This document shows, in pieces, positions 26,581 to 41,339 of a stretch of 64,000 nt of DNA. The notes under the pieces are model-generated. The model did no database searches and was not told the origin of the DNA. It saw only the letters and a program-made list of their open reading frames with translations. Position numbers and translations under genes: made by a program. The DNA lies in NCBI GenBank assembly GCA_001802945.1, contig MHAK01000077.1, positions 37,520 through 101,519 on the forward strand. The letters are read 5' to 3'. How positions within the stretch are numbered: the stretch's first letter is position 1; each line of letters begins with the position of its first letter. This stretch comes from Ignavibacteria bacterium RIFCSPLOWO2_12_FULL_56_21. Its GTDB lineage: Bacteria > Bacteroidota > Ignavibacteria > UBA10030.

Positions 26581-26604
26581 TGCTCCCGTCATGTTACGGG
26601 AGCA
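26581..26604. terminator. Hairpin between the convergent punA and DUF420 genes
   Basis: TGCTCCCG-tcatgtta-CGGGAGCA. The DUF420 stop codon lies in the loop. No T-tract on either strand. Confidence 0.4.
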
Positions 26605-27020
26605 CAAAGGTGGTATAGCATTACGTAGATGACCACCCCCGTGACTGAGACATAGGTCCACACGGGGAAGGTCCATTTTGCTATTGCCTTGTGCAGGCGA
26701 TCGTCCCTACGGAGTCCTCGGCGAAGCGTCACAATCACCATGGGGACCACGGCGGCAGCAAGAATCGTGTGCGAAAGCAGTATTCCAAAGTATATGAAGC
26801 GCACAACTCCTTCTCCCTGGAAGGGTTGCGAACCGTGATGCAAGTGATACACAAGATAGGAAACAAGGAAGAGAATGGAGACCGAGAAGGCAGAGATCAT
26901 GAAGGCCTTATGTTTCTGGACCATTCCACGCTTAACGTAACTTCTGCCCACGACGAGGAGAAGTGCGGATGTGGCGTTCAGTAGGGCGTTGACAGTGGGT
27001 AGCAGATCGAGGGGGAACAC
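26589..27020 (-). CDS. DUF420 membrane protein (cytochrome-oxidase-associated)
   Basis: LLPTVNALLNATSALLLVVGRSYVKRG..SYLVYH..four helices. I prefer the GTG at 27020, immediately after the ctaB stop, over the overlapping track start at 27176. Confidence 0.75.
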   Translation of the reverse strand: MFPLDLLPTVNALLNATSALLLVVGRSYVKRGMVQKHKAFMISAFSVSILFLVSYLVYHLHHGSQPFQGEGVVRFIYFGILLSHTILAAAVVPMVIVTLRRGLRRDDRLHKAIAKWTFPVWTYVSVTGVVIYVMLYHLCAPVT

Positions 27021-27022
27021 TG

Positions 27023-28012
27023 TCAGGCCCTGGAAACGAGTCCGAGAATCATCACCAGAGGAAGATATAGCAGTGATGCAAAGAAGAGATTTCTGGAGTC
27101 CGCGTTGATGGTTCTTGTCGTAGAGGTGTTTGCCAGTCCTCGCACAATCGGTTTGGCGGAGATCGAAACCAACCAAAGTGTCAATGATACGGCTGCAGGG
27201 ATTGCCATTGGTCCCGTGGATTCATAATAGAAAAAGATTGAGACAACGGGCAGTAAGCTCAGTGTGGACAAGAGGTTGATGCGGTGCGTCTGATGGGCGT
27301 TCTCGGTATCTTGAACGGAGAGCATGTGGTATCCTGCCCGTTCGTAGTCCTTTCGGTACATCCAGGCAAGAGAAAAGAAGTGCGGAAATTGCCAGATGAC
27401 CAGGAAAAGGAATAAGAACCACCCTCCTGCCGACGGGGTAGTCTCTGCGGCCGTCCAGCCTATAAGGACCGGCAATGCTCCCGGTATGGTTCCAAAAACT
27501 GTATTCAGCCAGGTTTTACGCTTGAGGGGCGTGTAGATTCCCAGGTAAAGGGCCAACGTGAGGAGAGAGATGAACGATGGCAAGGGCCCAGCCTCGATCC
27601 AGAGCAGAAGTGCGCCTGCGAGGGCAAGTAATACGCCAAAGGCCCCTGTTTCAAGCGCTCGTACACGTCCTGAAGGGAGCGGACGATGTTCTGTACGCTT
27701 CATCATGGCGTCGAAGCGCCGCTCAATGAGTTGATTCAGCGCTCCTGCCCCACCTCCAACCAGAAGAGTCCCGCTACCGACCATTGCCGCCGTAAGCCAT
27801 GTTGCCTGCGAATCTGCTGCCAGGACATAGGCAAACACTGATGTCAGAGCTGAAAGTCCCGTGAGCTCGGGCTTTGTCAATTCTGCGTACGTGGACAGCC
27901 GAGAAAGTCCGATCGGAAGAACGCGGGGGAATTGCAGGCTGTTTCCTTTTGCTTCAGGCACGGAGACCTTCGGGATGAAATGACGCGGGCTCGACGGCGG
28001 GGGGAGCCTCAT
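27023..28012 (-). CDS. ctaB: Protoheme IX farnesyltransferase (heme O synthase)
   Basis: UbiA-family polytopic protein (YAELTKPELTG..; NQLIERRFDAMMKRTEHRPLPSGR). The start is uncertain; a GTG at 27961 would shorten the overlap with ctaA. Confidence 0.9.
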   Translation of the reverse strand: MRLPPPSSPRHFIPKVSVPEAKGNSLQFPRVLPIGLSRLSTYAELTKPELTGLSALTSVFAYVLAADSQATWLTAAMVGSGTLLVGGGAGALNQLIERRFDAMMKRTEHRPLPSGRVRALETGAFGVLLALAGALLLWIEAGPLPSFISLLTLALYLGIYTPLKRKTWLNTVFGTIPGALPVLIGWTAAETTPSAGGWFLFLFLVIWQFPHFFSLAWMYRKDYERAGYHMLSVQDTENAHQTHRINLLSTLSLLPVVSIFFYYESTGPMAIPAAVSLTLWLVSISAKPIVRGLANTSTTRTINADSRNLFFASLLYLPLVMILGLVSRA

Positions 28013-28994
28013 TCGGAGCTTTCAATCGAACGAAATGGAGGCCGGAAAGGAATGTAAGCCCAAGCAGAGCCGCCCCTGCCGATTGGTGCATCGTTGCCAA
28101 GATTGCAGGACGTCCCAAAAGGACGGTCGCAATGCCAAGTGTCACTTGCACGATCAAAAGCAGGACTATCGACCAGCCCAACGTCCGAAATCGAGCCCGA
28201 TGGACCTTCATGCGAAAGAAGCGCACGGAATACCACACGAGCACTGTGGTCACCACGAGAGCCCAATACCTGTGGGCAAGGTGAATGACGATCTGCCACG
28301 CGGTGATCTGACCATCCGCCCACAGGTGATAGTCCCGGCGGACAAGTTCTTCCGTGTATGCCTTAAGAGAAGCATCGCTCAGGTCGGGGAACAGTCCCCC
28401 GTACGCAAGCGGAAAATCAGGCACGGAAAGTCCGGCCTGACTATGGCGCATGAGCGCACCAAGGATCAATTGCACAAACACCGCGGAAAAGGGAACTACG
28501 AAGCCGTACCATGACATTGATATGCGTGGTTCTTTGTCACGCTCATGCCACCATCGTGAATTCACGAATGCTAATGCTATCACAATGCAGAAGAATGTCT
28601 GTGCAAGGGTCGCATGGCTTGCGGAAACGGCAGTCGGCAGAAGGAAGAGCACGGTGAGCCCTCCAAGTGCGCCCTGAAATATCACGGCCGCCAAGGCTGC
28701 GACGCCCAGGCCCCTCACCCACTTCCTTTGCTCTGTCCTCCATATCCAAACGGTGAGTATGACCGTCAGGAAGCCGACAAACGAAGCGATCATCCGATGT
28801 CCGTGCTCGTAGAAAATCCCTCCCACCATAGGCGGCATGAGCTGTCCGTATGAGAGAGGCCAATCTGGAACGGCAAGTCCGGATCCGGTGCTAGTGACCA
28901 TTCCTCCCGCAATAAGGAGAAGGAATGTGCATGCAACAACGAACAGAGAAAACAACCTCAGGCGCATACTTTTCCTTGACTGCTTGAAATGCAT
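27954..28994 (-). CDS. ctaA: Heme A synthase, COX15/CtaA family
   Basis: Start moved to ATG 28994; the track start would overlap ctaC. GGMVTSTGSGLAVPDWPLSYG and paired-His helices. Confidence 0.88.
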   Translation of the reverse strand: MHFKQSRKSMRLRLFSLFVVACTFLLLIAGGMVTSTGSGLAVPDWPLSYGQLMPPMVGGIFYEHGHRMIASFVGFLTVILTVWIWRTEQRKWVRGLGVAALAAVIFQGALGGLTVLFLLPTAVSASHATLAQTFFCIVIALAFVNSRWWHERDKEPRISMSWYGFVVPFSAVFVQLILGALMRHSQAGLSVPDFPLAYGGLFPDLSDASLKAYTEELVRRDYHLWADGQITAWQIVIHLAHRYWALVVTTVLVWYSVRFFRMKVHRARFRTLGWSIVLLLIVQVTLGIATVLLGRPAILATMHQSAGAALLGLTFLSGLHFVRLKAPNEAPPAVEPASFHPEGLRA

Positions 28995-29046
28995 GTGCCT
29001 TCCGGCAGGAAGGCACGGCGCAAAACCTCGAACCGTTGAACAATCC

Positions 29047-30030
29047 TCATTGAACCTGTGGAGCTGTTTCCGCGGGGACATCCTGCGGGATCATGGCTTC
29101 CTGTTCCTTCATCCACTGGTCGAACTCTTCCTGTGTCTGTACCGTGACAAAGCCTCTCATGCGGTAATGGCCCAGACCGCAAAGTTGCGCGCATGCGATT
29201 TCTGTGGGGCTGTCCGGTGAAGCCTTTACGTCGAAGATCCCAGCTGCGGTGAGCTGCTGAACCGCTTCCTCGGAAAAGGAATATCCTTTCCCGACGATCA
29301 CATTGCCGTCCTTGTCCGCATAATCCTCCGCCGCAGAGTATGGCCCCTGGAGTTCCCTGGGCAAAACGCCTTCACGAAGCGAATACCTGCGCACTAAACG
29401 ATCGCGGATCTCAGCGGTGGTCATTGTGGGCGTGAACCACAATCGCACAGTCTCGCCCGGAATGGCATCCTGCTTCACGCGGAACAAGGGAAGTCCGAAG
29501 CTGTGAATGACGTCCTTCGTCGTGAGCCGAACGATCACGGGCTTGTTCACCGGAAGGTTCATTTGGTTCACGGAGACAATATCATCCTTTGCTGAAGGGT
29601 CCGTCCGGTCCAGGCCGATGGGATTCTCCGCGGAAACGAGCGATGCTATCGTCGTGCCGAATTCGCCGTCCGCCCCCGGATAATGGATATTCCAAATGAA
29701 TTGTTCGGCGACGACACGGACGACCGTTGCTGTATCATCGGGCGGAAATTCCGTGACGCGTGCGGACCAGAGCGGGAAGGCAAAGCCGACGAGAAGAACT
29801 ACCTCAAACACCGCGAGACCGGCTTCGAGATACGACGAAACGTGCGTCCGCACCCCGGTATAATTCGCAGCGCTCTGAGCACGACGCCGAAATCGATACA
29901 GTGTATAGATAAAAAACGAGCCCCAGCCTGCAAACAGCACGAACATCAACCAATGCACCACGCCGATCATCTGGTCGATATCCCCGCCATGAGCGGCGGC
30001 GTCGATGGGTAAACCAAGGAATTCCTTCAT
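29047..30030 (-). CDS. ctaC: Cytochrome c oxidase subunit II (CuA; no fused cytochrome c domain)
   Basis: Two N-terminal TM helices. CuA motif HSFGLP..CAQLCGLGHYRM. No CxxCH motif. Confidence 0.93.
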   Translation of the reverse strand: MKEFLGLPIDAAAHGGDIDQMIGVVHWLMFVLFAGWGSFFIYTLYRFRRRAQSAANYTGVRTHVSSYLEAGLAVFEVVLLVGFAFPLWSARVTEFPPDDTATVVRVVAEQFIWNIHYPGADGEFGTTIASLVSAENPIGLDRTDPSAKDDIVSVNQMNLPVNKPVIVRLTTKDVIHSFGLPLFRVKQDAIPGETVRLWFTPTMTTAEIRDRLVRRYSLREGVLPRELQGPYSAAEDYADKDGNVIVGKGYSFSEEAVQQLTAAGIFDVKASPDSPTEIACAQLCGLGHYRMRGFVTVQTQEEFDQWMKEQEAMIPQDVPAETAPQVQ

Positions 30031-30072
30031 GCTTTCAGAATCTCCCTAATAAGATGCGGGAATGTATCAGTG

Positions 30073-30336
30073 TCAGTTTGAACCGGGGAATTGAACGTCG
30101 CCCCCGAGCGTCATTCGCATGCGACGCCGAAAGTGGAGGAACATGGCGCTGAGGAGGCCGAGTACGACTGCGGTGATCCCCAGAAGCACCCACACGGCGG
30201 CATTCACGCCGGCTGCCGATCCCGATTCGGTCTCTCCAAAACAGACCGGACACGACAACAGCGGTTCTGCCGCAAACACGAACGCAAACGCCAAGAGTGT
30301 AAGGCGATTTCGTACTATCGATCTTCCCTTTCTCAT
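30073..30336 (-). CDS. Small membrane protein with a CPVC motif (87 aa)
   Basis: Signal/TM LTLLAFAFVFAAEPLLSCPVCFG, then a second helix AAVWVLLGITAVVLGLLSAMFL. The ATG overlaps the upstream stop as ATGA. Confidence 0.6.
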   Translation of the reverse strand: MRKGRSIVRNRLTLLAFAFVFAAEPLLSCPVCFGETESGSAAGVNAAVWVLLGITAVVLGLLSAMFLHFRRRMRMTLGGDVQFPGSN

Positions 30337-30536
30337 GGCCGGGGAGTCAGATGCGATATCTTTCTCAGGAAGGCTCTCTCATAGATCACGAGAACAATTG
30401 CGCCAATGACCGATCCAATAGCGCCCGCAACGGCCCAGGATTCGTCGGAGGCGATCGTCAGCAACAATATAGCGCAGGTTACTGACATAGCGGCCGACGC
30501 GATGATAAAGGCGATGTGAAATGCTTTCAGGGACAT
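30333..30536 (-). CDS. Small two-helix membrane protein (67 aa)
   Basis: FHIAFIIASAAMSVTCAILLLTI and AVAGAIGSVIGAIVLVIY. It is packed between the subunit IV gene and the CPVC gene. Confidence 0.55.
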   Translation of the reverse strand: MSLKAFHIAFIIASAAMSVTCAILLLTIASDESWAVAGAIGSVIGAIVLVIYERAFLRKISHLTPRP

Positions 30537-30540
30537 TGTC

Positions 30541-30846
30541 TCAGCCCACCATGCCGGGGTCGCTGTGGTGCAGCATCGGGAGGAACATCAAGGCAACAAA
30601 GAAAACAACCGTCAGCACCAGGAGTGCATAGATCATTTTCCGTTCCGAGATCAAATGCATGAAGTATCCGGCGACGAGCGCAGCTTTTATGGATGCAATG
30701 ATCAAAGCGACTATCAACGCCGCTATGAAAGGCAGATGCACATAGGAGACGGACACGGTGACTACCGTCAGGACCATCAGAGAATAGAATACGTACAGAT
30801 ACTTCCGGACGTGCGTCCTACTGTCTATGGAGTGGAAATCTGACAT
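30541..30846 (-). CDS. ctaF: Cytochrome c oxidase subunit IV (prokaryotic COX4 family)
   Basis: Start at ATG 30846, with AGGAGG 4 nt upstream. HVRKYLYVFYSLMVLTVVTV..KAALVAGYFMHL. Confidence 0.82.
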   Translation of the reverse strand: MSDFHSIDSRTHVRKYLYVFYSLMVLTVVTVSVSYVHLPFIAALIVALIIASIKAALVAGYFMHLISERKMIYALLVLTVVFFVALMFLPMLHHSDPGMVG

Positions 30847-30854
30847 ACTTCCTC

Positions 30855-31445
30855 CTACAGGAGATACAGAATGGGAAACAAGAAGATCCATACGAGGTCA
30901 ACAAAATGCCAGTAGAGCCCGGCAACTTCGATCCGGTTGATGAATCGGGCCGGGTCTGTTGTCCACATCTTGCTCCCTGGACCCCAAAGGTAGATGTTCA
31001 CGATAATGCCGCCAATGACATGGAGTCCGTGCAGGCCGGTCATCGTGAAATATGTGGCGAAGAAATTACTCGTTGAAGGTAGAAGACCGTGCTCGAATTT
31101 CGCGCCATATTCAAATGCCTTGATGACAAGGAATACGAAAGCAAACAGGATCGTTCCGCCAAGATATCGGCGGAACTTTGCGAAGTTCTTCTCAAGCAAC
31201 GAGGCCCAGGACATCACCATCGTGACGCTCGAAGAGATCAGGACGATCGTATTCACGGTAGCCAAGGGGACGTTCAGGATCTCCCAGCCATGCGGCCAAG
31301 TCGTTGCGTTCACGCGCAGAAGCACCAGCGAGGAGAAAAGCGCCCCGAAGAGCATGACCTCGGACGCCAGGAAGAGCCAGATGCCAAGTTTGGCGTTGTA
31401 GAGGCCGGTGTCCGGCCGTTCGACAGCATTATACGGGATTTGCAT
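30855..31445 (-). CDS. ctaE: Cytochrome c oxidase subunit III
   Basis: 196 aa. Five-helix Cox3-like sequence (GLHGLHVIGG; AGLYWHFVDLVWIFLFP). Confidence 0.93.
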   Translation of the reverse strand: MQIPYNAVERPDTGLYNAKLGIWLFLASEVMLFGALFSSLVLLRVNATTWPHGWEILNVPLATVNTIVLISSSVTMVMSWASLLEKNFAKFRRYLGGTILFAFVFLVIKAFEYGAKFEHGLLPSTSNFFATYFTMTGLHGLHVIGGIIVNIYLWGPGSKMWTTDPARFINRIEVAGLYWHFVDLVWIFLFPILYLL

Positions 31446-31457
31446 GCGATACCTTGA

Positions 31458-33218
31458 TCAAGATTCGGACTGTGGCGAAAAGTCTTTGGATGCCCCAGGG
31501 AGGCTGTACTCGTAAGGGCCCCGGACGACGACAGGTTCTTTCAGAAAGTTCCCGTGGCCCGGCGGCGTCGGAGTCTGCCATTCGAGTGTTGTCGACTCCC
31601 ATGGATTGTCCGCCGCTTTCTTCCCTTTCCAAATACTCCAGAAGAAATTGAAGATAAATGGAATCTGGAAGAGCCCGAGCGTCCACGCCGCTACGGACAT
31701 GACCTCGTTCAGATACAGCACACCTTGGGCGTGCGTGTACTGAGCACCGCCGTCATACAATCGCCGTGAGACTCCTGCGAGTCCCTGGATGAACATGGGC
31801 ATAAAGATGAAATTGATCGAGACAAACGAACCCCAAAAATGGATCTTCCCAAGCGTGCTGTTCATCGACCGGCCGACGACCTTCGGATACCAAAAATAAA
31901 TGCCGGCAAACAGAGCGAAGAGCGTTCCGGGCGCAACCACATAATGGAAATGACCGATGACGTAATACGTGTCATGCAGATGAATATCGGTGGGCGCAAG
32001 ACCGAGCGGCAATCCGGTAAGACCTCCAATACCGAACATCGGCAGGAATGCCAGAGCGAAGAGCATAGGCACACTGAAGCGAATTGATCCTCCCCAGAGA
32101 GAGATGATCAAGGCCGTCAGGATGATCACGGAAGGAATGGAAATGATCATTGTGGTAGTCTGGAAGAACGTGCTGATCGTCGTTCCCATTCCGGTGAGGA
32201 ACATGTGGTGCGCCCACACGATGAACGACATGAAACCCAGAAATACCGTCGCATACACGAGCGACCTGTATCCCCAGAGCGGCTTTCTGGTGTTGTTCGC
32301 AATGATTTCCGCGACGATGCCCATGGCCGGGAGAATGAGCACGTAGACTTCGGGATGCGCCAGGAACCAGAAGAGGTGCTGCCAGAGGAGGACGCTGCCC
32401 CCACCCGAGTTCTCCATCGGAACGCCGGAAACGATCAGCCCGCTGGGCATGAAGAAACTCGTTCCCGCCAGGCGGTCCATCAATTGCAGAATGCCGGCAG
32501 CTTCAAGCGGCGGAAATGCAAGGAGAAGCAGGAATGAGGTCACCAACTGCGCCCAGACGAAGAACGGAAGCCGCATAAACGTGAGGCCCTTCGCGCGAAG
32601 TTGAATGATCGTCACGATGATGTTCATTGATCCGAGCAACGACGAGGTGATCAAGAATACCATGCCGATAAGCCAGTAGGTCTGACCGGCGGTCGCAATC
32701 ACAGACAATGGAGCGTATGATGTCCACCCAGAATTTGCAGCGCCGCCCGGGATGAAAAAACTTGCAAGCATGACGACGCCGCCGACAAAATACGACCAAT
32801 AGCTTGTTGCATTCAACTTCGGGAATGCCATGTCTGGTGCTCCGACCATCAACGGCACCAGATAATTGCCGAACGCACCTACTGCCAGCGGCACGACGCC
32901 CAGGAACACCATAATGGTTCCGTGCATCGCACCAAGTTGATTATAGAATTCGGGCAACATGATCCCGCCGGGCGCATTCATTTCTCCAAACCATTCGCCG
33001 ATGTACGGTATGGGCTGGCCAGGATAGGCCAACTGCCACCGCATGACCATCATCAACGAGAAACCGAACAGCAGGAACAGGAGACTGGTAATCCCGTATT
33101 GGATCCCGATGACCTTATGGTCAACGGAAAAGATATAGTTCCGCAGGAATCCCAGCTCTTCCTCGTGGAGGTGAGCGTGGTCGGTATGCGGTGCGGTCGC
33201 TACATGTTCCACGTGCAA
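31458..33218 (-). CDS. ctaD: Cytochrome c oxidase subunit I (heme-copper oxidase, A-type)
   Basis: DHKVIG, WFLAHPEVYVLILP, HHMF and GHFHYV blocks. Apparent TTG start with AAGGA upstream. Confidence 0.96.
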   Translation of the reverse strand: MHVEHVATAPHTDHAHLHEEELGFLRNYIFSVDHKVIGIQYGITSLLFLLFGFSLMMVMRWQLAYPGQPIPYIGEWFGEMNAPGGIMLPEFYNQLGAMHGTIMVFLGVVPLAVGAFGNYLVPLMVGAPDMAFPKLNATSYWSYFVGGVVMLASFFIPGGAANSGWTSYAPLSVIATAGQTYWLIGMVFLITSSLLGSMNIIVTIIQLRAKGLTFMRLPFFVWAQLVTSFLLLLAFPPLEAAGILQLMDRLAGTSFFMPSGLIVSGVPMENSGGGSVLLWQHLFWFLAHPEVYVLILPAMGIVAEIIANNTRKPLWGYRSLVYATVFLGFMSFIVWAHHMFLTGMGTTISTFFQTTTMIISIPSVIILTALIISLWGGSIRFSVPMLFALAFLPMFGIGGLTGLPLGLAPTDIHLHDTYYVIGHFHYVVAPGTLFALFAGIYFWYPKVVGRSMNSTLGKIHFWGSFVSINFIFMPMFIQGLAGVSRRLYDGGAQYTHAQGVLYLNEVMSVAAWTLGLFQIPFIFNFFWSIWKGKKAADNPWESTTLEWQTPTPPGHGNFLKEPVVVRGPYEYSLPGASKDFSPQSES

Positions 33219-33248
33219 AATTCCTTTCGTGTCAGCGAATGGTGAAAC

Positions 33249-33932
33249 TCAGCTCTTGTATGAAAAGTCGACAGTCGCCTTGCCCGAAGCATCCACCTTC
33301 ACGGTCGCCGTCTTCGTACCGTATTTTTCATGCCACGCTTCAATCGTGTACTCTCCCGCGGGTAGTCCCTTGATGGTGAACGAACCGTCATCTCCGGTCA
33401 CCGCGTGATACGGATGGTTGAAAACGCCAATATACGCACCCATCCACGGATGGACTTCGCACTTCACTTTGAAGGTCTCTTCTTTTGCAAATGTTTTTGT
33501 CATCTTCATGCCCTTCATCGGCTGGGCATTGTTAAACTGAGGATTGGCCTTGGAAAGCGAGTGGACATTGTGAAGTGTCGCATCACTGTTCCGAACCTCC
33601 AGTTCTTGTCCAACCATGAGCGAGAGGACATGAGGCGTATAGAGGCAACCCATCTGATCGAACACCAGTTTGTCTTTCGGCGCCGTGAACGATCCCTTCA
33701 ATCCCGACTTCACGTAGACGATAACGTTGCGCAATGTCCCGTTCTTGTTGACGACAACGTCTTCGCCCGTCACGGGCTTCGTGTGGGCCTTTTTACAGAC
33801 GGGGTCCGCGGTCATTTGCAGGGGAGATCCCTTCGGTGGCGTTCCAGCGAACGCGACTTTTCCGGTCACATCGCCAGCTGAGGCAATGGTCATTCCGAGA
33901 ATCAAAATGCCTAACACTCTTCTGCACTGCAT
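33249..33932 (-). CDS. Secreted cupredoxin (type-1 copper) fused to a carboxypeptidase-regulatory-like beta-sandwich
   Basis: Signal MQCRRVLGILILGMTIASA. Copper ligands: HNVH..KCEVHPWM (C-x2-H-x2-M, as in amicyanin CTPHPFM). C-terminal DDGSFTIKGLPAGEYTIEAWHEKYG. GGAGG upstream. Confidence 0.75.
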   Translation of the reverse strand: MQCRRVLGILILGMTIASAGDVTGKVAFAGTPPKGSPLQMTADPVCKKAHTKPVTGEDVVVNKNGTLRNVIVYVKSGLKGSFTAPKDKLVFDQMGCLYTPHVLSLMVGQELEVRNSDATLHNVHSLSKANPQFNNAQPMKGMKMTKTFAKEETFKVKCEVHPWMGAYIGVFNHPYHAVTGDDGSFTIKGLPAGEYTIEAWHEKYGTKTATVKVDASGKATVDFSYKS

Positions 33933-33978
33933 CGTGATACCTCCAGGAATAGGATTTGATGTTGGTTGATTCTGTGAA

Positions 33979-36633
33979 TTATCGGTCGGCTATCGGGGTG
34001 CCGCTGCGACGACCAAGGCTCCACACATACGTCTGGAGCGCCCGGATCTGCTCGTTCGCATCGCCATTCAACACGCTTTCATCCGGACCTTGCCCATCGA
34101 AGAAGAATTGGGGCATCCGAGTTCCGGGCTGGAGCCTCTGGGGATCGAGGAGCCAACCGCTGATCCATTCCGGCTTGAGCCGGGACGATGCCATGGCGAG
34201 ATTCGGCGCAAGGTCTGCAGCCCCTTCCCCGCTCACCGGTCCAGACGGATGGCATTTTGCGCATTGATACGTGTCGAACAACTGTCGTCCCGGCCGAAGA
34301 TAGTCGGTCTCCGGCTGAACTGAAGCATAGTCCCTGATCACCATGTCCTGATGCGCCATGCCCAGGAAGTATTTTTGTAACTTGCCAATCTCTTCCTCGT
34401 TGAATTGGAAGGTCGGCATCCTGATCTTCAACCATGGCCTGATCGTCGTCGGGTTCTTGAAAAAAGCATGGAGCCATTGTTCCTGCACTTTGGCTCCCTG
34501 GGTCTCCGGAATGGGAGGGGGTCCCAGCGCAGCCTCTTCGTACTTCGCAAGGACGTATCCGCCTTCATCTTCGAGGATATGGCATTGCTGGCAGTTATAA
34601 CGCATGCTCACGCGACGGCCGCCTTCGATATCCTGGAATCGTTTGTCGTACGCACGCTGGTGAGCCGGCAGTGGAATGTCCCGCGTCATGCTGATGAGGA
34701 ACATCCTGACGAGCTTGATCTCCTCGTCGGAGAACTCGAATACCGGCATCTTCTGGGCTATACGCTCGGTCTGAAAGAGCCGGGCATTCTTGAGCTTGCC
34801 GTAGATCCATCCTCTCCACGTGTGCTGTACGCTCACTGTTCCGTCGTCATTCGCCAGGTATTCCTGCTCTCCGTGCGCCTGGATCGGCTTCGTGTCGCCG
34901 AAATCCATTTGCTCAGCCTTCTTCCTGCCGAAATCCGACAATTCCACCGACACTTTTCCTTCATTTTCCATCCCCTTAATGAGATGGCATCCCGCGCATC
35001 CGTATTCTCGGATGAGCTTGTCGCCACGCGCAATGCGGTCCGGGTCGTCCAAAGCCACCGAGAATTTGTCCAGCGCCCGTTCGTCTTTCATGGTCATAAC
35101 GTATGCCACGACGTTACGGGCTTCCTGATCGGACAACCTCAGGCTCGGCATTCGGGAATCTGCATTGTAATGGCGCGGATTCTTTAACCAGTCAAACAAC
35201 CAGTCGGCGTTCACCTTGCTACCGACTCGGCTCAATTCCGGCGCAATGTCGTAACTCGTGCCTCGCACGTCCCTGACCGTTGTGAAGCCTGCGGTGACAT
35301 GGCATGCCTGGCAACCGACAGCTTCAAAGAGCCTCTTCCCTTCCGACGGCGAGCCGCCTGCGTAAGAGCCTCGCGGGCGCTCCAGCGTGAACTCCGATGT
35401 CCGCGAAGCGCTGACAAGATACGCGGTGACCGCTTCCGCCTGCTCATCCGAGAACCTGAAGTTGGGCATTCGCGTGTGCGGACTGTAGTCCCTCGGGTTT
35501 CGCACCCACCTGTAAATCCATTCCGGAGTTGCCTTCGCTGTAATGGAGTACAGCGGCGGGCCGATCTTCGGTAGGTCTGAAAATCCCTTGATCTCGTGGC
35601 ATCCGTAGCAGCCGGATTCAATAACGACTTGTTTCGCCTTGACATAAGGCTTGGCGAACTTCAGGCGCGTCTCGTTGTAGTGACAGCCGTTGCACGATGC
35701 ATAGACGTCGTTACCACGAAGGAGCGGAGTCTCCCAGTAATGATCCTCATCGCCATGGGCGAATCCTGGGGTAAGAGCCGGTCCTTGACCGCGATGACAC
35801 GGCGTGCATCCGAACGTCTCCGGATTGTGCTGTGCGAGGAGCTCCGGCGCGGGATGTTTGCTGTGCGGCTGCGGCGCATCCGTCATGAGTTCTTCTCTCC
35901 ATCCCAGGTGGCACGTCTGACAACGGTCGACGCGAGCCTTCACTTCCTGGAACGGCGTGAATTCGTAGTCATTCTTGACGACCTGATGTATTGCGATCGG
36001 GGACTGACGCTGCTTTTCCGCTTTTGCCTGATACCCCGCGACAGCACCGAGCAGCGCCCTCAATTCCACTTCGGCCTTTTGCACAGCCGTTGTGTATTTT
36101 TCGAGGATGAGATCGAAGCCGGCGATCTCACGCTCCAGGTTGTTGCGGCTTTCGAACCACTTCGCAATGTCGGCATCATGACCGTCGAGCTCTGCCTTGC
36201 TTGACGTTGCGTCCTTCCCCTCTGCAAGATCCTTCTTGTACTGATAGTACGCGGCATCCGAACGGCTGCGCGCAAACCGCCATTCGCGCGTGGCGATCTC
36301 CAATTCCTCCAAGAGATCGGTCTTACGCTCGTTCGTTGTCACGTATTCTTCTGCCGAGAGAGCAGCGCGCGCGGATGCGACTGCCTCCGTCGCCTGACTC
36401 ACCGCTGCGGAATCGACAGACGCTTGAGCATCCAGAGCGAGGGAATCATATTTTGCGGCGAGCAGATCGTTATACTCGGTTTGATAATCCTTCCATGGTC
36501 GACGGGAAACCACTTCATCCCAGAGTGACCAGACCGTTCCAAGAAACAGTAGCCCGCTGAACGCCACATAGAAGTGGACATACTTCCGTGTCTCGACAGG
36601 CGTTTGCGTCCGTTTGTCAAAATAGGAGGTCAT
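33979..36633 (-). CDS. Membrane-anchored octaheme c-type cytochrome
   Basis: Eight CxxCH motifs: CQTCH, CTPCH, CNGCH, CYGCH, CQACH, CAGCH, CQQCH, CAKCH. N-terminal TM helix plus a coiled-coil of about 190 aa. The last five hemes each sit in a module that ends in W..W..NP..(R/K)MPxF. Confidence 0.9.
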   Translation of the reverse strand: MTSYFDKRTQTPVETRKYVHFYVAFSGLLFLGTVWSLWDEVVSRRPWKDYQTEYNDLLAAKYDSLALDAQASVDSAAVSQATEAVASARAALSAEEYVTTNERKTDLLEELEIATREWRFARSRSDAAYYQYKKDLAEGKDATSSKAELDGHDADIAKWFESRNNLEREIAGFDLILEKYTTAVQKAEVELRALLGAVAGYQAKAEKQRQSPIAIHQVVKNDYEFTPFQEVKARVDRCQTCHLGWREELMTDAPQPHSKHPAPELLAQHNPETFGCTPCHRGQGPALTPGFAHGDEDHYWETPLLRGNDVYASCNGCHYNETRLKFAKPYVKAKQVVIESGCYGCHEIKGFSDLPKIGPPLYSITAKATPEWIYRWVRNPRDYSPHTRMPNFRFSDEQAEAVTAYLVSASRTSEFTLERPRGSYAGGSPSEGKRLFEAVGCQACHVTAGFTTVRDVRGTSYDIAPELSRVGSKVNADWLFDWLKNPRHYNADSRMPSLRLSDQEARNVVAYVMTMKDERALDKFSVALDDPDRIARGDKLIREYGCAGCHLIKGMENEGKVSVELSDFGRKKAEQMDFGDTKPIQAHGEQEYLANDDGTVSVQHTWRGWIYGKLKNARLFQTERIAQKMPVFEFSDEEIKLVRMFLISMTRDIPLPAHQRAYDKRFQDIEGGRRVSMRYNCQQCHILEDEGGYVLAKYEEAALGPPPIPETQGAKVQEQWLHAFFKNPTTIRPWLKIRMPTFQFNEEEIGKLQKYFLGMAHQDMVIRDYASVQPETDYLRPGRQLFDTYQCAKCHPSGPVSGEGAADLAPNLAMASSRLKPEWISGWLLDPQRLQPGTRMPQFFFDGQGPDESVLNGDANEQIRALQTYVWSLGRRSGTPIADR

Positions 36634-36657
36634 TCGGGTCTCGAGGCAAACTCAGAA

Positions 36658-37560
36658 TTAGATGTTGAACCAGGGAGTCACGAGAACGTATTTCACCGGA
36701 TTCAGGCCGAAAACCGGCGGACCGAGGCGTAGCAAGATCTTGATGACCAATCCCACCATGGACAACAGCAAAAACGCGACGACGCTGTACCGGATGAAGC
36801 CGAGCTTTTTGAAGAGGTCGGAGTTTTGCCGCTGTATCCACACGAGCCCCACAGGAGTATAGAGCGCGCCGACGCAGACGGCTCCGAAGATCATCGCCGC
36901 AGGATTGAGTGTATTGTCCGGATTGCGTGTGGGGATGCCGAAGTACTCCGACAGATCCACGTTTGTCAGCACGCCAACGAAGTGCGGGTCCCACGTTTCC
37001 CACGGCCAAAAGAAATTCCAGCCCGGTCCGCGAAAAAGAGTGCCGATGACGATCAGCAGAACCCACAGGACGTGGAATCCGAAAACGTACGTCAGTACCG
37101 CAAACTTTCTCTCCTTGAACGTATAGTAACCGTTCCCCTTCTCGTTAATGTCTATGTACGGAATGGCCATGAGCCCGACGATGATCAACGTCGGCAACAC
37201 GACACCCGCGATCCAAGGGTCAAAATACACGAGCATTTCCTGCAAGCCGAGGAAATACCAAGGAGCCTTTGAAGGATTCGGAGTCAGAGCTCTGTTGGCC
37301 GGTTCTTCCAGCGGAGCATCGAGCGCAATCGACCAGATCACAAGGACTGCCATGATGAGGATCGTGGCAAGAAATTCCACCCGGACGAGATACGGCCATA
37401 CCTGAACCTTGTCGTCCTGCTTTGCTTCGTCCGGGACGCCCTGATTGTCATTCTTACGGGCCTTCGACCAGGCCAACTGAGAATAGAACACGACCGACAC
37501 CAGGAGCAGAATGATCGGAATGTTGTCGGGCTTCGAGAGAATTTCGAGAAGTTGGTCCAT
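36658..37560 (-). CDS. Cytochrome b C-terminal subunit (b6f subunit-IV-like, extended)
   Basis: PNPSKAPWYFLGLQEMLVYFDPW (the PEWYF-type block of PetD and of the cytochrome b C-terminal half). At 300 aa with extra helices, it is longer than canonical PetD. Confidence 0.85.
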   Translation of the reverse strand: MDQLLEILSKPDNIPIILLLVSVVFYSQLAWSKARKNDNQGVPDEAKQDDKVQVWPYLVRVEFLATILIMAVLVIWSIALDAPLEEPANRALTPNPSKAPWYFLGLQEMLVYFDPWIAGVVLPTLIIVGLMAIPYIDINEKGNGYYTFKERKFAVLTYVFGFHVLWVLLIVIGTLFRGPGWNFFWPWETWDPHFVGVLTNVDLSEYFGIPTRNPDNTLNPAAMIFGAVCVGALYTPVGLVWIQRQNSDLFKKLGFIRYSVVAFLLLSMVGLVIKILLRLGPPVFGLNPVKYVLVTPWFNI

Positions 37561-37583
37561 GCCTCAGGTCCGTGGCGTGCGAG

Positions 37584-38354
37584 TTAGAATTGCTTCTTGC
37601 CGGTGTCGGGGCCAGAGATGCCGCCGTCTTTCCTCACGCGCCAAAAATGGACGGCCATGAAAATGGACGCGACGATGGGGAGAAATATGCAATGGCCGAC
37701 GTAGAAGCGCAGAAGCGTCGGGGGTCCGACTTCCGTGCCGCCAAGGAGCACAAATCGCACGTCATTGTCTGGACGCATGCCAAGCTCGGCGCCGAACGGA
37801 CCCTCATGTCCCAAAAGCGGCGTCGCACGGGCCATGTTCGTGCCGACGGTGACTGCCCAAATGGCAAGCTGATCCCACGGGAGCAAATAGCCGGAGAAGC
37901 TCAGGAGGAGCGTGAGCACGAGGAGGAGTACGCCGACGACCCAGTTGAACTGACGTGGCGGCTTGTACGAACCGGTAAGAAATACCCGGAACATGTGCAG
38001 CATCACCGTGAGAACCATGGCATGAGCGCCCCACCGGTGCATGTTGCGAATGAGCGGACCGAATGGAACGTCGTTCATCAGGTATTTCATGTCCTCATAT
38101 GCGTACTGCGCAGTCGGGCGGTAGTAGAACATCAGGATGATGCCCGTGATTGTGAGGACGAGGAACAGGAGAAACGTGATGCCACCCATTCCCCATGTGT
38201 AGCCGATGTTGGTGGCGTGACGCGGTACACGCACGGGATGCAGGTGCAGAAAGACGTTGTCCACGATCTGCAGAGCGCGATTCCGCTGCGTATCCTGATA
38301 GCTGTGTCGAAAGATCGATTTGTAGACTTCGGTTTTCTTCAGCGCATCGAACAT
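37584..38354 (-). CDS. Cytochrome b6-type subunit (cytochrome b N-terminal, four-helix, bis-heme)
   Basis: [50 protein letters not shown] upstream. Confidence 0.93.
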
Positions 38355-38364
38355 GCGTACTCCT

Positions 38365-38985
38365 TTACCCTACGAACGGCAGAAATGCACCCGGTTTGGA
38401 CCATTCACCTTTTTCATACAGAAACTTGATGCTGCGATCGACCTCGATCTGACCGTCGTCGGAGATAGAGATCGATGCGCGTTCGAGCGGCCTCGGAGCG
38501 GGGCCTTCAAAATTGATTCCGGTCTTGTAGAATCCGCTCCCATGGCAGGGGCACTTGAATTTTATGTCCGATGCAAGCCAACGGGGCGTACATCCGAGAT
38601 GCGTGCATATGGAGATGATCGCATAAAAGCCCTCGCGTTCACGAACGATCCAAACGCGTTTTTCATCCTTGTATTTTTCGCTGACCTCGCCGACGACAAA
38701 ATCCTGTGGGAAGCCTGCCTTGAATTTTGTGGGAGGTTCGAACAACACACGCGGGAACATGAACCTGAGAGCTCCGATCGTCGACGTCAGGATAAACGCG
38801 AAAAAACCCATCCATCCGGCGATCGAGAGGAGGTTCCTTCTGCTGATGCGCCAAATGCCCGGGTCTCCTTCCGGAGCCCGGTCCTGCTTGGCCTTGCGTA
38901 CAGGTTGCGCAGTGATCGGTGGATTCGGTGGCGGGGGCGGCGCAGACGCGGCCGGTGCGGACTGTTCTATCGTGGGATCAGCCAT
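38365..38985 (-). CDS. Rieske 2Fe-2S subunit
   Basis: [19 protein letters not shown]-terminal Pro/Ala-rich tail and a TM anchor. Confidence 0.93.
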
Positions 38986-39127
38986 GCAACTTCTCTGATG
39001 GTATCAGATGATGGAATCTCGCAGCGGCGCAACGGTCGCAACGAAGGAATATTTTGGTATATGCACTGCATGCACAACAATTCTAACATTGCGGTCGCCG
39101 CGAGAGTATTCTTGAGACATCTTCGAT

Positions 39128-39445
39128 TCAAACTTCTTCTTCCCGTTTGACCATGTCGATCGTTTCCCATGGGCAGTACTTTGCGCACAGTTTGCAGCCG
39201 ATGCAGATCTCTTCGTCAACGACGACGATCCCGTTTACGCTCACGTATCCGTGTTCTTCGGGATTCTCCGGACCCGGGACTTTGTACAGGCAATCGACCG
39301 GACAGAATTCGATGCACACTTCACAACCTGTGCAACCCTCTGGATGAACTATTGCAACGAGCGGAGACTTCTTCTTTTTCTTGGGGACCGGCGGTACTGC
39401 GGATTTTGGTGGAGCGGATTGCGGAGCTGCCTGAATATCGCTCAT
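39128..39445 (-). CDS. 2x[4Fe-4S] ferredoxin with a basic Pro/Lys-rich N-terminal tail
   Basis: CTGCEVCIEFCP and CIGCKLCAKYCP. The tail reads APPKSAVPPVPKKKKKSP. Confidence 0.88.
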   Translation of the reverse strand: MSDIQAAPQSAPPKSAVPPVPKKKKKSPLVAIVHPEGCTGCEVCIEFCPVDCLYKVPGPENPEEHGYVSVNGIVVVDEEICIGCKLCAKYCPWETIDMVKREEEV

Positions 39446-39486
39446 GCTGGGTTAGGTGGAGTCCGATTCTCGTTCGTGCGAATGTT

Positions 39487-39515
39487 AATATAGCAAGGCA
39501 TGCACGTTTTGTCAA
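39487..39515 (-). promoter_or_regulatory. Sigma70-type promoter for the respiratory operon
   Basis: Minus strand reads TTGACA-17 nt-TATATT (39515-39510 and 39492-39487), about 42 nt upstream of the ferredoxin ATG. Confidence 0.55.
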
Positions 39516-39641
39516 GAATGATTCCCACTTTCCTTGGTATGAACCGGCTCAACGTGTTTCCTATCAAGGCCGATTTCGGGCTCATGTCAAAGTTTGCCTG
39601 TAGCAATCATCCCAACCTTTAGCGATATCAAACCTTCTCGA

Positions 39642-39670
39642 TTGCACTCCCTTCCATTCATTGGTATATT
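39642..39670 (+). promoter_or_regulatory. Candidate promoter for bshC
   Basis: TTGCAC-17 nt-TATATT, with the -10 box ending 28 nt before ATG 39699. Confidence 0.35.
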
Positions 39671-39698
39671 CAACCACTTCGCACTCACTGGACATCGC

Positions 39699-41339
39699 AT
39701 GCAATCAATCGACTTTAACGATTTTACATCTTCCGACCTGGGCCTGAGCAGACTCTTTCTCGATTATCTGACAGATCATCAACGCGTACGGTCGTTCTTT
39801 CCGAGGAACTTTCGGAATTCCAAAGATTGGGAATCGACGTTGCGCGACGTAAGCTCCCGGTCGTTGGACAGATCGGCGCTCGTCCAGGTTCTCTCTCAAC
39901 AAAACCGGAATTTTCAATGTGGCGTCAAGACCCTCGCGAATATCGACCTCCTTCTGAACGATAATACGGTCGCCATCGTCACCGGACAACAAGTGGGAAT
40001 GTTCACGGGGCCCATGTATACGCTCTACAAAACGCTTACAGCCATCCGCCTTGCTGAACAACTTGGGAAGCGTCATCCCGACCACACGTTCGTTCCCGTC
40101 TTCTGGATCGAGGGAGAGGACCACGACGTGGAAGAAGTCACGTCCGTCAAGCTCTTCACGGCGACCAACGACCTCGCGACATACACATATCCTGTGGAGG
40201 GACATTCCCAGGGGAAGAACCTCGGCGCGGTCGGCGTCATTCCATTCACCGACGCCATCGTCGCTTTTGTCGACCAGATACGAAAAGGTGTGACCCAGAC
40301 GGAATTCACAGACGGGGTCATCAACCTTTTTTCGACGGCGTACCAACCCGGAATGACATTCACCCGCGCGTTCGTTCATTTATTGAATGATCTGCTGGGC
40401 GATACCGGGTTGATCTATATCGACCCAAATGACGCGGGATTGAAGAAACTTCTGGCTCCGGTCTTTCGGACGGATCTCTACGAAACTCCGCGCTTGTGTC
40501 AACTCGTCGTCGACACGAGCGTGCAACTGGAGCAGCAGTATCATGCTCAGGTCAAACCTCGTCCCGTGAATTCCTTCCTGTTCCATAACGGAGGACGCTT
40601 TCCCATCGAGCCTCATGCCCAAGGGTTTGCCCTGAAGGGAACACGCCAGCACTATTCCAAGGAAGAACTGCTCGCCCTTCTGGACGCTCATCCTGAATAC
40701 TTCAGTCCGAACGTCGTCTTGCGGCCGCTGTGTCAGGATACCCTCCTTCCGACCGCGGCCTATGTGGCAGGCCCCGCAGAGGTCGCCTATTTTGCCCAGA
40801 TCATTCCTCTCTACAAGGAATTCGGCATCCCTGTCCCCGTCATCTACCCGCGCGCCAGCGCCACAATTCTGGAAGAGAAAGTCGAGAAAGTTCTTACACG
40901 TTTCGCATTGCAGCCCCAGGAATTGTTCGGCGGCATCGATTTCATCAAAACGCGGGTCGCCGGCCAGGTTTCTGATTTCAAGGCGGAAGAATTGTTCGGA
41001 GCGACGATCGGTTCGGTGGAAGAATCGCTTAACAGCCTTCGGTCGGGACTTCAAAAGATCGACCCGACGCTGTTGGGAGCTTTGGACAACACCCTCGATA
41101 AGATGCGCTCGCACATTCTTGTTCTGAAACAGAAGACCGCTGCGGCACAGCAGCGACAGCACGAGGTCTTCATGCGTCAGATCGACAAGGCCTCATTGTT
41201 CGTCGTGCCGGAAGGCTCTTTTCAGGAACGGAAGATCAACGTGCTCTACTACCTGAACAAGTACGGGCCGGAGTTTGTGCGGTGGCTGGACGGCGAATTG
41301 AAGATCGATGCGTTTAAGCATCAGTTGATCCGGCTTTGA
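39699..41339 (+). CDS. bshC: Bacillithiol biosynthesis cysteine-adding enzyme
   Basis: Start moved to ATG 39699, giving 547 aa. N-terminal LSRLFLDYL..VRSFF and overall BshC-like length and sequence. Confidence 0.85.
   Translation: MQSIDFNDFTSSDLGLSRLFLDYLTDHQRVRSFFPRNFRNSKDWESTLRDVSSRSLDRSALVQVLSQQNRNFQCGVKTLANIDLLLNDNTVAIVTGQQVGMFTGPMYTLYKTLTAIRLAEQLGKRHPDHTFVPVFWIEGEDHDVEEVTSVKLFTATNDLATYTYPVEGHSQGKNLGAVGVIPFTDAIVAFVDQIRKGVTQTEFTDGVINLFSTAYQPGMTFTRAFVHLLNDLLGDTGLIYIDPNDAGLKKLLAPVFRTDLYETPRLCQLVVDTSVQLEQQYHAQVKPRPVNSFLFHNGGRFPIEPHAQGFALKGTRQHYSKEELLALLDAHPEYFSPNVVLRPLCQDTLLPTAAYVAGPAEVAYFAQIIPLYKEFGIPVPVIYPRASATILEEKVEKVLTRFALQPQELFGGIDFIKTRVAGQVSDFKAEELFGATIGSVEESLNSLRSGLQKIDPTLLGALDNTLDKMRSHILVLKQKTAAAQQRQHEVFMRQIDKASLFVVPEGSFQERKINVLYYLNKYGPEFVRWLDGELKIDAFKHQLIRL

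Follow-up and report, generated by a model that had tools for sequence, protein, structure and literature searches.

Does a run of fifteen genes in an uncultured bacterium of the class Ignavibacteria encode one respiratory chain, leading from quinol to oxygen, or only the parts of several? The genes lie in a 64,000-nucleotide (nt) stretch of contig MHAK01000077.1 (positions 37,520 to 101,519) of Ignavibacteria bacterium RIFCSPLOWO2_12_FULL_56_21, an assembly of 3.36 Mb that is 95% complete. This whole stretch is referred to here as the window, and gene coordinates are counted from its first letter. Fifteen consecutive open reading frames (ORFs), all on the minus strand, span positions 26589-39515. 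Scans against Pfam and NCBIfam, together with reading of the sequences, recovered every gene that a preliminary description of the sequence had listed, with the domains, positions and order given there. Encoded are a ferredoxin (fdx), a Rieske protein, a split cytochrome b, an octaheme cytochrome c, a blue-copper protein (cupredoxin), the subunits of a heme-copper oxidase and enzymes of heme A synthesis.

We consider it probable that the block is a respiratory operon of two modules that together would form a menaquinol-to-oxygen chain; its co-transcription and any physical association of its products are inferred from sequence. The first module ((ferredoxin)-Rieske-cytochrome b6-subunit IV-octaheme cytochrome) would be an APWY-clade Rieske/cytochrome b complex that oxidises menaquinol and in which a membrane-anchored cytochrome with 3 + 5 hemes would stand in place of cytochrome c1/f. 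The second (cupredoxin-CoxI-III-IV-two small proteins-CoxII-CtaA-CtaB-DUF420) would be an A-family, aa3-type oxidase that brings its own blue-copper donor, heme A pathway and maturation factor. Electrons would pass from menaquinol at the Qo site to the Rieske cluster and the His/Met hemes of the octaheme cytochrome, then to the periplasmic type-1 copper protein, CuA of CoxII, heme a, the heme a3-CuB site and O2. The second electron would be recycled via the two b hemes in a Q cycle. Forward, O2-linked operation is argued from gene order, because the cupredoxin, aa3 oxidase and heme A genes directly follow the first module.

The Rieske/cytochrome b module

The Rieske [2Fe-2S] protein (38365-38985; PF00355) has the cluster boxes CTHLGC and CPCHGSGF, which are conserved in 66 homologs, and a twin-arginine-like anchor (SRRNLL and a transmembrane helix at residues 52-70). 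Next is the N-terminal part of a split cytochrome b (37584-38354; PF00033, E=2.7e-44), a b6-like four-helix protein whose heme-ligand His pairs have the b6 spacing of 13 and 14 residues. It is 83-96% identical to the proteins of relatives. The PetD-like subunit IV (36658-37560; PF00032) is extended, with 300 amino acids (aa) and six predicted transmembrane helices versus three in b6f. Its Qo motif is APWY (SKAPWYFLGLQE, NPSKAPWYFLGLQE), conserved in 73 homologs, and it resembles Geobacter ExtQ in a sub-threshold NCBIfam match only. Cluster boxes with an anchor, a four-helix cytochrome b with two His pairs and a separate subunit IV of the PxWY type together identify a Rieske/cytochrome b complex.

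Split cytochromes b of the APWY clade occur in several phyla; none is characterised, and reverse operation has been suggested for them (PMC4122944). A CxGG heme ci motif (WCMGG) is frequent, not universal, in the clade (PMC4122944). In the window, the cytochrome b reads TWGMGG at this site, as conserved in 70 homologs. Both Gly of the motif remain but the Cys does not, and heme ci is therefore not expected. The group that matches the APWY clade has been termed subfamily G, and an association with NAD(P)-binding FeS proteins of large size was noted for it, anammox bacteria being an example; proteins of Ca. Kryptonia were placed in it by Dibrova et al. (2017) (PMC5600118). A Kryptonia cytochrome b is 83% identical to that of the window, which gives only an indirect lead to subfamily G. 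Judged by the APWY motif on a split subunit IV, the first module probably belongs to this clade.

Operons with genes for a Rieske protein, a split cytochrome b and an "atypical octaheme cytochrome c" were published from Nitrospina gracilis, "Ca. Kuenenia stuttgartiensis" and "Ca. Methylomirabilis oxyfera" (Lücker et al., 2013; PMC3578206). These operons correspond to the APWY clade (PMC4122944) and to subfamily G (PMC5600118). We liken them to the window by gene order, as all have the same four genes in series (Rieske, b6-like subunit, subunit IV, octaheme cytochrome). The first module is thus an already published gene arrangement, the biochemistry of which is uncharacterised. Unlike these systems, the window has a stand-alone ferredoxin in place of a large oxidoreductase and WGMGG instead of WCMGG, and its module is directly followed by genes for a cupredoxin, a complete aa3 oxidase and heme A synthesis.

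The octaheme cytochrome c (33979-36633; 884 aa) was assigned by Pfam and by reading of the sequence. Its eight CxxCH motifs are all invariant in an alignment of 45 homologs. After the first three (residues 238, 276 and 314), H260, H269 and H293 are also invariant, which indicates a c7-like tri-heme unit with bis-His ligation. The five later motifs (342, 441, 546, 681 and 791) belong to class-I His/Met modules, as each has a distal Met within an R/K-M-P motif (M389, 495, 629, 739 and 840; invariant in 45/45). In an AlphaFold2 model (predicted local distance difference test, pLDDT, 78.7) an N-terminal transmembrane helix leads into a helical hairpin of ~190 residues, and the heme domains follow. 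The heme make-up is thus refined to three bis-His and five His/Met hemes behind a membrane anchor and a hairpin.

No solved relative of the whole protein was found. A profile search of the PDB returned matches to single heme domains only (ActA of 6BTM, E=3.6e-6), and Foldseek on the model returned nothing below E=0.2, only coiled-coil hairpins (colicin E3, Smc, HlyD). The gene is the fourth of the Rieske/cytochrome b module in 80/80 related loci. This constancy is consistent with the suggestion of the preliminary description that the protein replaces cytochrome c1/f, a role that we infer from position.

The first gene of the block encodes a 2x[4Fe-4S] ferredoxin (39128-39445; 105 aa; Fer4 families) with a Pro/Ala/Lys-rich N-terminus that includes KKKKK, a polylysine stretch conserved in relatives. 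Neither a signal peptide nor a transmembrane helix is predicted, and the protein is thus presumably cytoplasmic. Over its full length the ferredoxin can be aligned (31-32% identity) with the two-cluster C-terminal domain of GltD-like FeS flavoproteins encoded at two other loci of the genome (contigs C100 and C64), which suggests that it is a reduced relative of a flavoprotein subunit. Upstream of the Rieske gene, fdx is present in 35 of 63 loci, with identity of up to 98%, and absent from 28. The latter loci weaken the idea of the ferredoxin as an obligatory subunit.

The blue-copper protein and the oxidase

Downstream of the octaheme gene is a gene for an exported protein of 227 aa (33249-33932). 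Pfam misses its N-terminal domain and matches only a C-terminal CarboxypepD_reg region, and public annotations of the family read "plastocyanin" (JGI) or "carboxypeptidase regulatory-like domain-containing protein" (NCBI). A phmmer search of PDB sequences matched the Nitrosopumilus blue-copper protein 5fc9_A (E=7e-5) with the ligand regions aligned. An AlphaFold2 model (pLDDT 88.6, predicted template modelling score 0.85) has Foldseek matches to amicyanin, plastocyanin and pseudoazurin with a probability of 1.00; template modelling scores relative to the target are 0.65-0.75 for amicyanin and plastocyanin. Type-1 copper ligands H121, C158, H161 and M164 are invariant in 35 homologs, with an amicyanin-like spacing (C-x2-H-x2-M). 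On this sequence and model evidence the protein is a type-1 copper cupredoxin with a predicted copper site, fused to a C-terminal CarboxypepD_reg-like beta-sandwich, and the identity proposed in the preliminary description is upheld. There is a signal peptide and a conserved mature N-terminus (AGDVTGK); no lipobox or transmembrane anchor was found in the sequence.

CoxI (31458-33218; PF00115, E=6e-132) matches CtaD_CoxA with E=3.6e-175, which is below the curated cut-off. Its MHG, HPEVY, HHMF and GHFHY motifs align with solved CoxI chains, and all six His metal ligands are present. Among solved structures it is closest to mycobacterial CoxI. The D-pathway Asp and the glutamate of HPEVY are kept. 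At the position of the K-pathway lysine there is Ile ("IPSVIIL" vs "VPTGIKF", residues ~360-375), and Ile or Val occupies this position in all of the ~45 related CoxI sequences. This flags a lineage of A-family oxidases that lacks the canonical K-pathway lysine. No other A-family oxidase is encoded in the genome.

CoxII (29047-30030; PF00116) matches CoxB with E=7e-36, also below the curated cut-off. It has two transmembrane helices and a CuA site formed by H176 and CAQLCGLGHYRM (C-x3-C-x3-H-x2-M), conserved in 39 homologs. There is no CxxCH motif in its sequence, so that a subunit II with CuA and without a fused cytochrome c domain, as originally noted, is borne out. The presence of CuA, the mark of an oxidase that takes electrons from a cytochrome c or a cupredoxin, led us to reject a quinol oxidase. 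Between the first CuA His and the Cys loop, the cupredoxin domain of CoxII has an insertion of ~70 aa (residues ~205-275) that is variable in sequence yet present in 39/39 homologs.

Between the genes for CoxI and CoxII are those for a short form of CoxIII (30855-31445; 196 aa; PF00510) and a CoxIV of the prokaryotic type (30541-30891; PF03626; likely start at ATG 30846), followed by two small membrane ORFs of 67 and 87 aa (30073-30536) without a family match. The small ORFs are joined by an ATGA overlap and have two hydrophobic segments each. The 87-aa ORF (30073-30336) was found between coxIV and coxII in most related loci, with 29-60% identity, and the 67-aa ORF in eight relatives. After its first hydrophobic helix the 87-aa protein has a CPVC motif, and C29, C32 and G34 are conserved. 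The products may be oxidase assembly or copper-handling factors, or an extra subunit.

The last three genes encode CtaA/Cox15, the heme A synthase (27954-29081; PF02628, E=2.8e-43), CtaB, the heme O synthase or protoheme farnesyltransferase (27023-28012; PF01040, E=3.7e-48), and a DUF420 membrane protein (26589-27176; PF04238, E=2.2e-41; probable start at GTG 27020). CtaB belongs to the UbiA family, and its identity is also supported by the fact that the gene adjoins ctaA. DUF420 is the CtaM family; in Staphylococcus aureus, aa3 oxidase function depends on CtaM (PMC4958251).

Gene order, promoter and read-through

The genes are tightly packed. With maximal ORFs, the gaps are 142 (between fdx and the Rieske gene), 10, 23, 24, 46, 30, 12, 4 and 42 nt, and the overlaps are -37, -4, -35, -59 and -154 nt. 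Large overlaps vanish if internal starts are used; GTG 27020, for example, leaves a gap of 2 nt ahead of the DUF420 gene. These values agree with the spacing reported at the outset (2-46 nt or overlap, apart from the 142-nt spacer). A structured RNA in that spacer was considered and rejected, as its predicted folding is not better than that of shuffled sequences (z=-1.47). The block is self-contained. Its upstream neighbour is a divergent bshC gene (39594-41339, plus strand), and on the downstream side a convergent gene for a nucleoside phosphorylase ends 18 nt away from the stop codon of the DUF420 gene.

The preliminary description called for a survey of this gene order in other genomes. More than 1000 homologs of the octaheme cytochrome have 50-70% identity, and all named ones are from metagenome-assembled genomes (MAGs) of Ignavibacteria/Bacteroidota. 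A scan with one genome per species found octaheme relatives in 554 genomes; the 15 window proteins were then compared by tblastn with the best 80 loci, one per species, of which 75 were informative and five too short. At 56 of the 75 the cupredoxin gene is at most 600 nt downstream of the octaheme gene, with spacers of 36-274 nt. This junction is retained in 56 species in which octaheme divergence extends down to ~50% identity. The complete colinear string of 12 genes, from Rieske to DUF420, lies within the available flanks of 30 loci. At the other 19 of the 75, no oxidase module is found downstream of the octaheme gene. The survey thus extends the gene order to many species, and it also finds the two modules apart.

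In genomes with unlinked modules, the cupredoxin gene remains beside the oxidase genes. In nine of nine such genomes searched whole, the closest cupredoxin homolog lies directly upstream of oxidase subunit genes: coxI in seven genomes, and coxII-coxI in two Kryptonia genomes. Because the gene stays with coxI in this way, the cupredoxin is most likely the oxidase's electron donor. The earlier idea that it replaces soluble cytochrome c is consistent with this placement at the head of the oxidase module and with a CoxII that lacks a cytochrome c domain. By gene order, the block is a juxtaposition of two autonomous modules, placed one after the other. Because 19 of 75 relatives keep them at separate loci, we regard the gene-level fusion as a clade-specific juxtaposition.

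In Kryptonia-type genomes, oxidase assembly genes are instead upstream of the Rieske/cytochrome b-octaheme module. In the Ca. Kryptonium thompsonii MAG (locus L077, 6789-8245) an ORF of 150 aa separates the ferredoxin gene from the Rieske gene; by eye only, its N-terminus resembles an Rrf2-type regulator. The upstream region in Kryptonia also has, beside the oxidase assembly genes, candidate ATP synthase beta/epsilon-like ORFs, as read from N-terminal sequence.

The octaheme gene is patchy within the host class: 45 of the 201 genomes sampled carry it, as do 26 of the 99 genera. One genome of the same genus lacks it, and so does an entire genus of the same family, a distribution that suggests frequent gain or loss of the module.

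Upstream of fdx is a sigma-70-type sequence, TTGACA-17-TATATT, with TG ahead of the -10 element (39515..39487, minus strand). It is the sole match to 11 of 12 consensus positions in the 14 kb scanned. The total number of promoter-like hits (seven, versus 8.3 expected by chance) is that of shuffled sequence. Identical hexamers with 17-nt spacing occur upstream of fdx in 25 related species, in which the surrounding DNA has otherwise diverged. In loci that lack fdx, TTGAC(A/T)-17-TA(T/C)ATT is instead found upstream of the Rieske gene (17/28). Because of this phylogenetic footprint, in the 25 relatives and the fdx-less loci, we take the promoter to be real. The near-consensus promoter first noticed by inspection is thereby confirmed.

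In ~20 related species a conserved block like GATTCTCGGAWTTWTTC abuts the -35 element. The window version, GGGAATCATTC (39516-39535, minus strand), lies directly upstream of the -35 hexamer. This block may act as an UP element or as a binding site for a regulator.

Signals that would split the block were also sought. Terminator-like hits on the minus strand are at chance level (15, versus 13.4 ± 3.8 expected), and all of them lie inside coding sequence, so that no intergenic minus-strand terminator was found. A scan for consensus sites of the sigma-70 type covered the 350 nt ahead of the cupredoxin gene. No site exceeded 9/12 at linked loci, most of which stay at the 8/12 of chance level, whereas unlinked genomes have sites of up to 10/12. 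The scarcity of good internal promoters at linked loci fits read-through into the oxidase module, without proving it. Most likely, both modules are read from the conserved promoter upstream of fdx.

Electron flow, alternatives and known systems

Two paralogous clusters for Rieske, cytochrome b, subunit IV and multiheme proteins were identified elsewhere in the genome, on contigs C100 and C64, and a further Rieske/cytochrome b pair on contig C16. In both clusters a GltD-like FeS flavoprotein gene (646-668 aa) precedes the Rieske gene, similar to the association with NAD(P)-type FeS flavoproteins in anammox bacteria. The C100 cluster (locus L088, 1-8748, minus strand) encodes a protein of 416 aa, a cupredoxin paralog (36% identity), a 646-aa GltD-like NAD(P)/FeS flavoprotein and the Rieske, cytochrome b and subunit IV proteins. 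Also encoded there are an octaheme cytochrome of 647 aa, in which the helical hairpin is missing, and a monoheme cytochrome c. The 416-aa protein has one N-terminal CxxCH motif and no Pfam match; it is Cyc2-like in layout only.

Several points weigh against a chain that runs simply from menaquinol to O2. Complexes of the APWY clade have been proposed to run in reverse (PMC4122944; for Nitrospina, PMC3578206). The three bis-His hemes of the octaheme cytochrome, presumably of low potential, are odd for a simple wire from Rieske protein to copper, and the scheme gives the cytoplasmic ferredoxin no role. The competence of a CoxI without the K-pathway lysine as a standard aa3 oxidase is assumed. 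Consensus scans are unable to exclude internal promoters, and the support for co-transcription is indirect. The 19 loci that have no oxidase module downstream count here as well: the Rieske/cytochrome b module is also found without an adjacent acceptor, and it may serve several.

Could the chain be more tightly built than two enzymes and a carrier? A Rieske/cytochrome b dimer might combine with octaheme cytochrome, cupredoxin and aa3 oxidase into one obligate quinol oxidase particle, in which the hairpin and heme chain would bridge both enzymes and the cupredoxin would be a bound subunit, not a shuttle. We think this reading, the dedicated supercomplex suggested in the preliminary description, rather unlikely. 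Tight gene linkage at 56 of 75 loci would suit such a particle, but the modules are unlinked in 19 relatives. The extra beta-sandwich of the cupredoxin could act as a docking module, yet its cleavable-looking signal peptide, with no lipobox or transmembrane anchor, fits a soluble carrier, and a paralogous cupredoxin accompanies the oxidase-less Rieske/cytochrome b cluster on C100. The membrane anchor and long conserved hairpin of the octaheme protein, a CoxII without a cytochrome c domain, and the precedents of actinobacterial bcc-aa3 and SoxMEFGHI (PMC4122944) also point towards association, although the sequence demonstrates no contact between the parts.

A lithotrophic branch point, as in the rus/pet system of Acidithiobacillus, seems to us quite improbable. 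External electrons would enter at the octaheme cytochrome or the cupredoxin. From there a downhill path would lead to the aa3 oxidase and an uphill path, via the Rieske/cytochrome b complex, to menaquinone, with the ferredoxin as a possible low-potential exit on the side of the cytoplasm. The reverse operation proposed for the clade (PMC4122944; PMC3578206) is in line with this, as is the homology of the window ferredoxin to the ferredoxin domain of the C100 flavoprotein, although fdx is absent from 28 of 63 related loci. The C100 cluster combines a candidate of Cyc2-like layout with a cupredoxin paralog, an NAD(P)-type flavoprotein, Rieske/cytochrome b and an octaheme cytochrome, whereas no outer-membrane cytochrome or porin gene was found in or adjoining the window block. 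The heme A genes and single promoter point to plain aerobic respiration, and Ignavibacterium album, a cultured member of the class, was described as a chemoheterotroph (PMC3362086). Nothing within the window itself calls for a lithotrophic or reverse reading.

We see only a slight chance that the two modules are merely adjacent, with the Rieske/cytochrome b-octaheme part serving as a general complex III for several acceptors and the oxidase module having landed downstream with a promoter of its own that went unrecognised. The limitation of the promoter scan to sigma-70 types, the spacers of 36-274 nt and the 19 relatives with the first module alone would accommodate this, and the patchy distribution in the class (45/201, and a same-genus genome without the octaheme gene) suggests mobile modules. 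Against it, the junction is kept in 56 species diverged to ~50% octaheme identity, and the genome already has three further Rieske/cytochrome b loci and an alternative complex III (ACIII) for other acceptors. Hardly probable is a hard-wired menaquinol oxidase supercomplex of the APWY complex, the stalked octaheme cytochrome, the two-domain cupredoxin and the oxidase without the K-pathway lysine, with the polylysine ferredoxin, as a remnant of the NAD(P)-linked FeS flavoprotein of the paralogous clusters, docked on the cytoplasmic face of cytochrome b and exchanging electrons between heme bH and the ferredoxin pool; if true, this third, low-potential outlet of a Rieske/cytochrome b complex would be a quinone-based bifurcation or confurcation tied to O2 respiration.

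A two-module operon for menaquinol oxidation by O2 thus remains our preferred reading. Its value lies in the contrast with a clade that is uncharacterised and for which reverse flow or NAD(P)H production has been proposed (Nitrospina, Geobacter, anammox bacteria). The conserved promoter and the linkage to blue-copper and aa3 oxidase genes lead to a testable forward function, from menaquinol to O2, and point to likely redox partners of an APWY complex: the octaheme cytochrome, the cupredoxin and CuA.

We found no prior description in the literature of this gene combination in Ignavibacteria. Each of its parts belongs to a known kind, and comparable linkages occur in other lineages; the finding refines existing views and does not overturn them. 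The view that linkage of Rieske/cytochrome b and oxidase genes is rare also needs qualifying, given the actinobacterial, SoxM and ACIII-caa3 examples and an ACIII-cbb3 cluster in the host genome itself. In the actinobacterial bcc-aa3 system (QcrCAB and CtaCDEF), in which the two sets of genes are likewise linked, soluble cytochrome c is absent and a multi-heme cytochrome c wires the Rieske protein to CuA. It differs from the window in that diheme QcrC contacts CuA directly, cytochrome b is unsplit with PDWY, and there is no cupredoxin. In Sulfolobus, a Rieske protein, cytochrome b, an oxidase and a blue-copper protein are encoded together as SoxMEFGHI with sulfocyanin (SoxE) and act as a quinol oxidase (PMC4122944). 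The SoxM system is archaeal and differs in its PDWY or PPWF Qo motif, lack of a c-type cytochrome and fused oxidase subunits, whereas the window has an octaheme cytochrome c between the Rieske and copper proteins.

Clusters of ACIII and oxidase genes resemble the window block in that the genes for a multiheme quinol:acceptor oxidoreductase lie beside those for its terminal oxidase, in the same bacterial lineage, and in function they cover the same step of the chain. Among the examples is the ACIII-aa3 supercomplex of Rhodothermus marinus and Flavobacterium johnsoniae (PDB 6BTM). ACIII was rejected for the window block, as no ActB or ActC/ActF (NrfD-like) homologs are present in it, and the preliminary description was right on this point for the locus. 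The core of the window block is instead a Rieske/cytochrome b complex, which would allow a Q cycle. In Ignavibacterium album an ACIII-caa3 gene cluster was reported, the only such linkage described in the genome paper (PMC3362086).

The ACIII of the host is encoded on another contig, C129 (locus L090, 2255-14866, plus strand), directly after the only further heme-copper oxidase of the genome, which is of the cbb3 type. The genes there encode CcoN, a FixO-type CcoO and a cytochrome c, then c7-like ActA, a 999-aa ActB and NrfD-like ActC, with further ORFs. Thus, Ignavibacteria-type bacteria can hold two parallel quinol-to-oxygen routes, ACIII-cbb3 and Rieske/cytochrome b-aa3.

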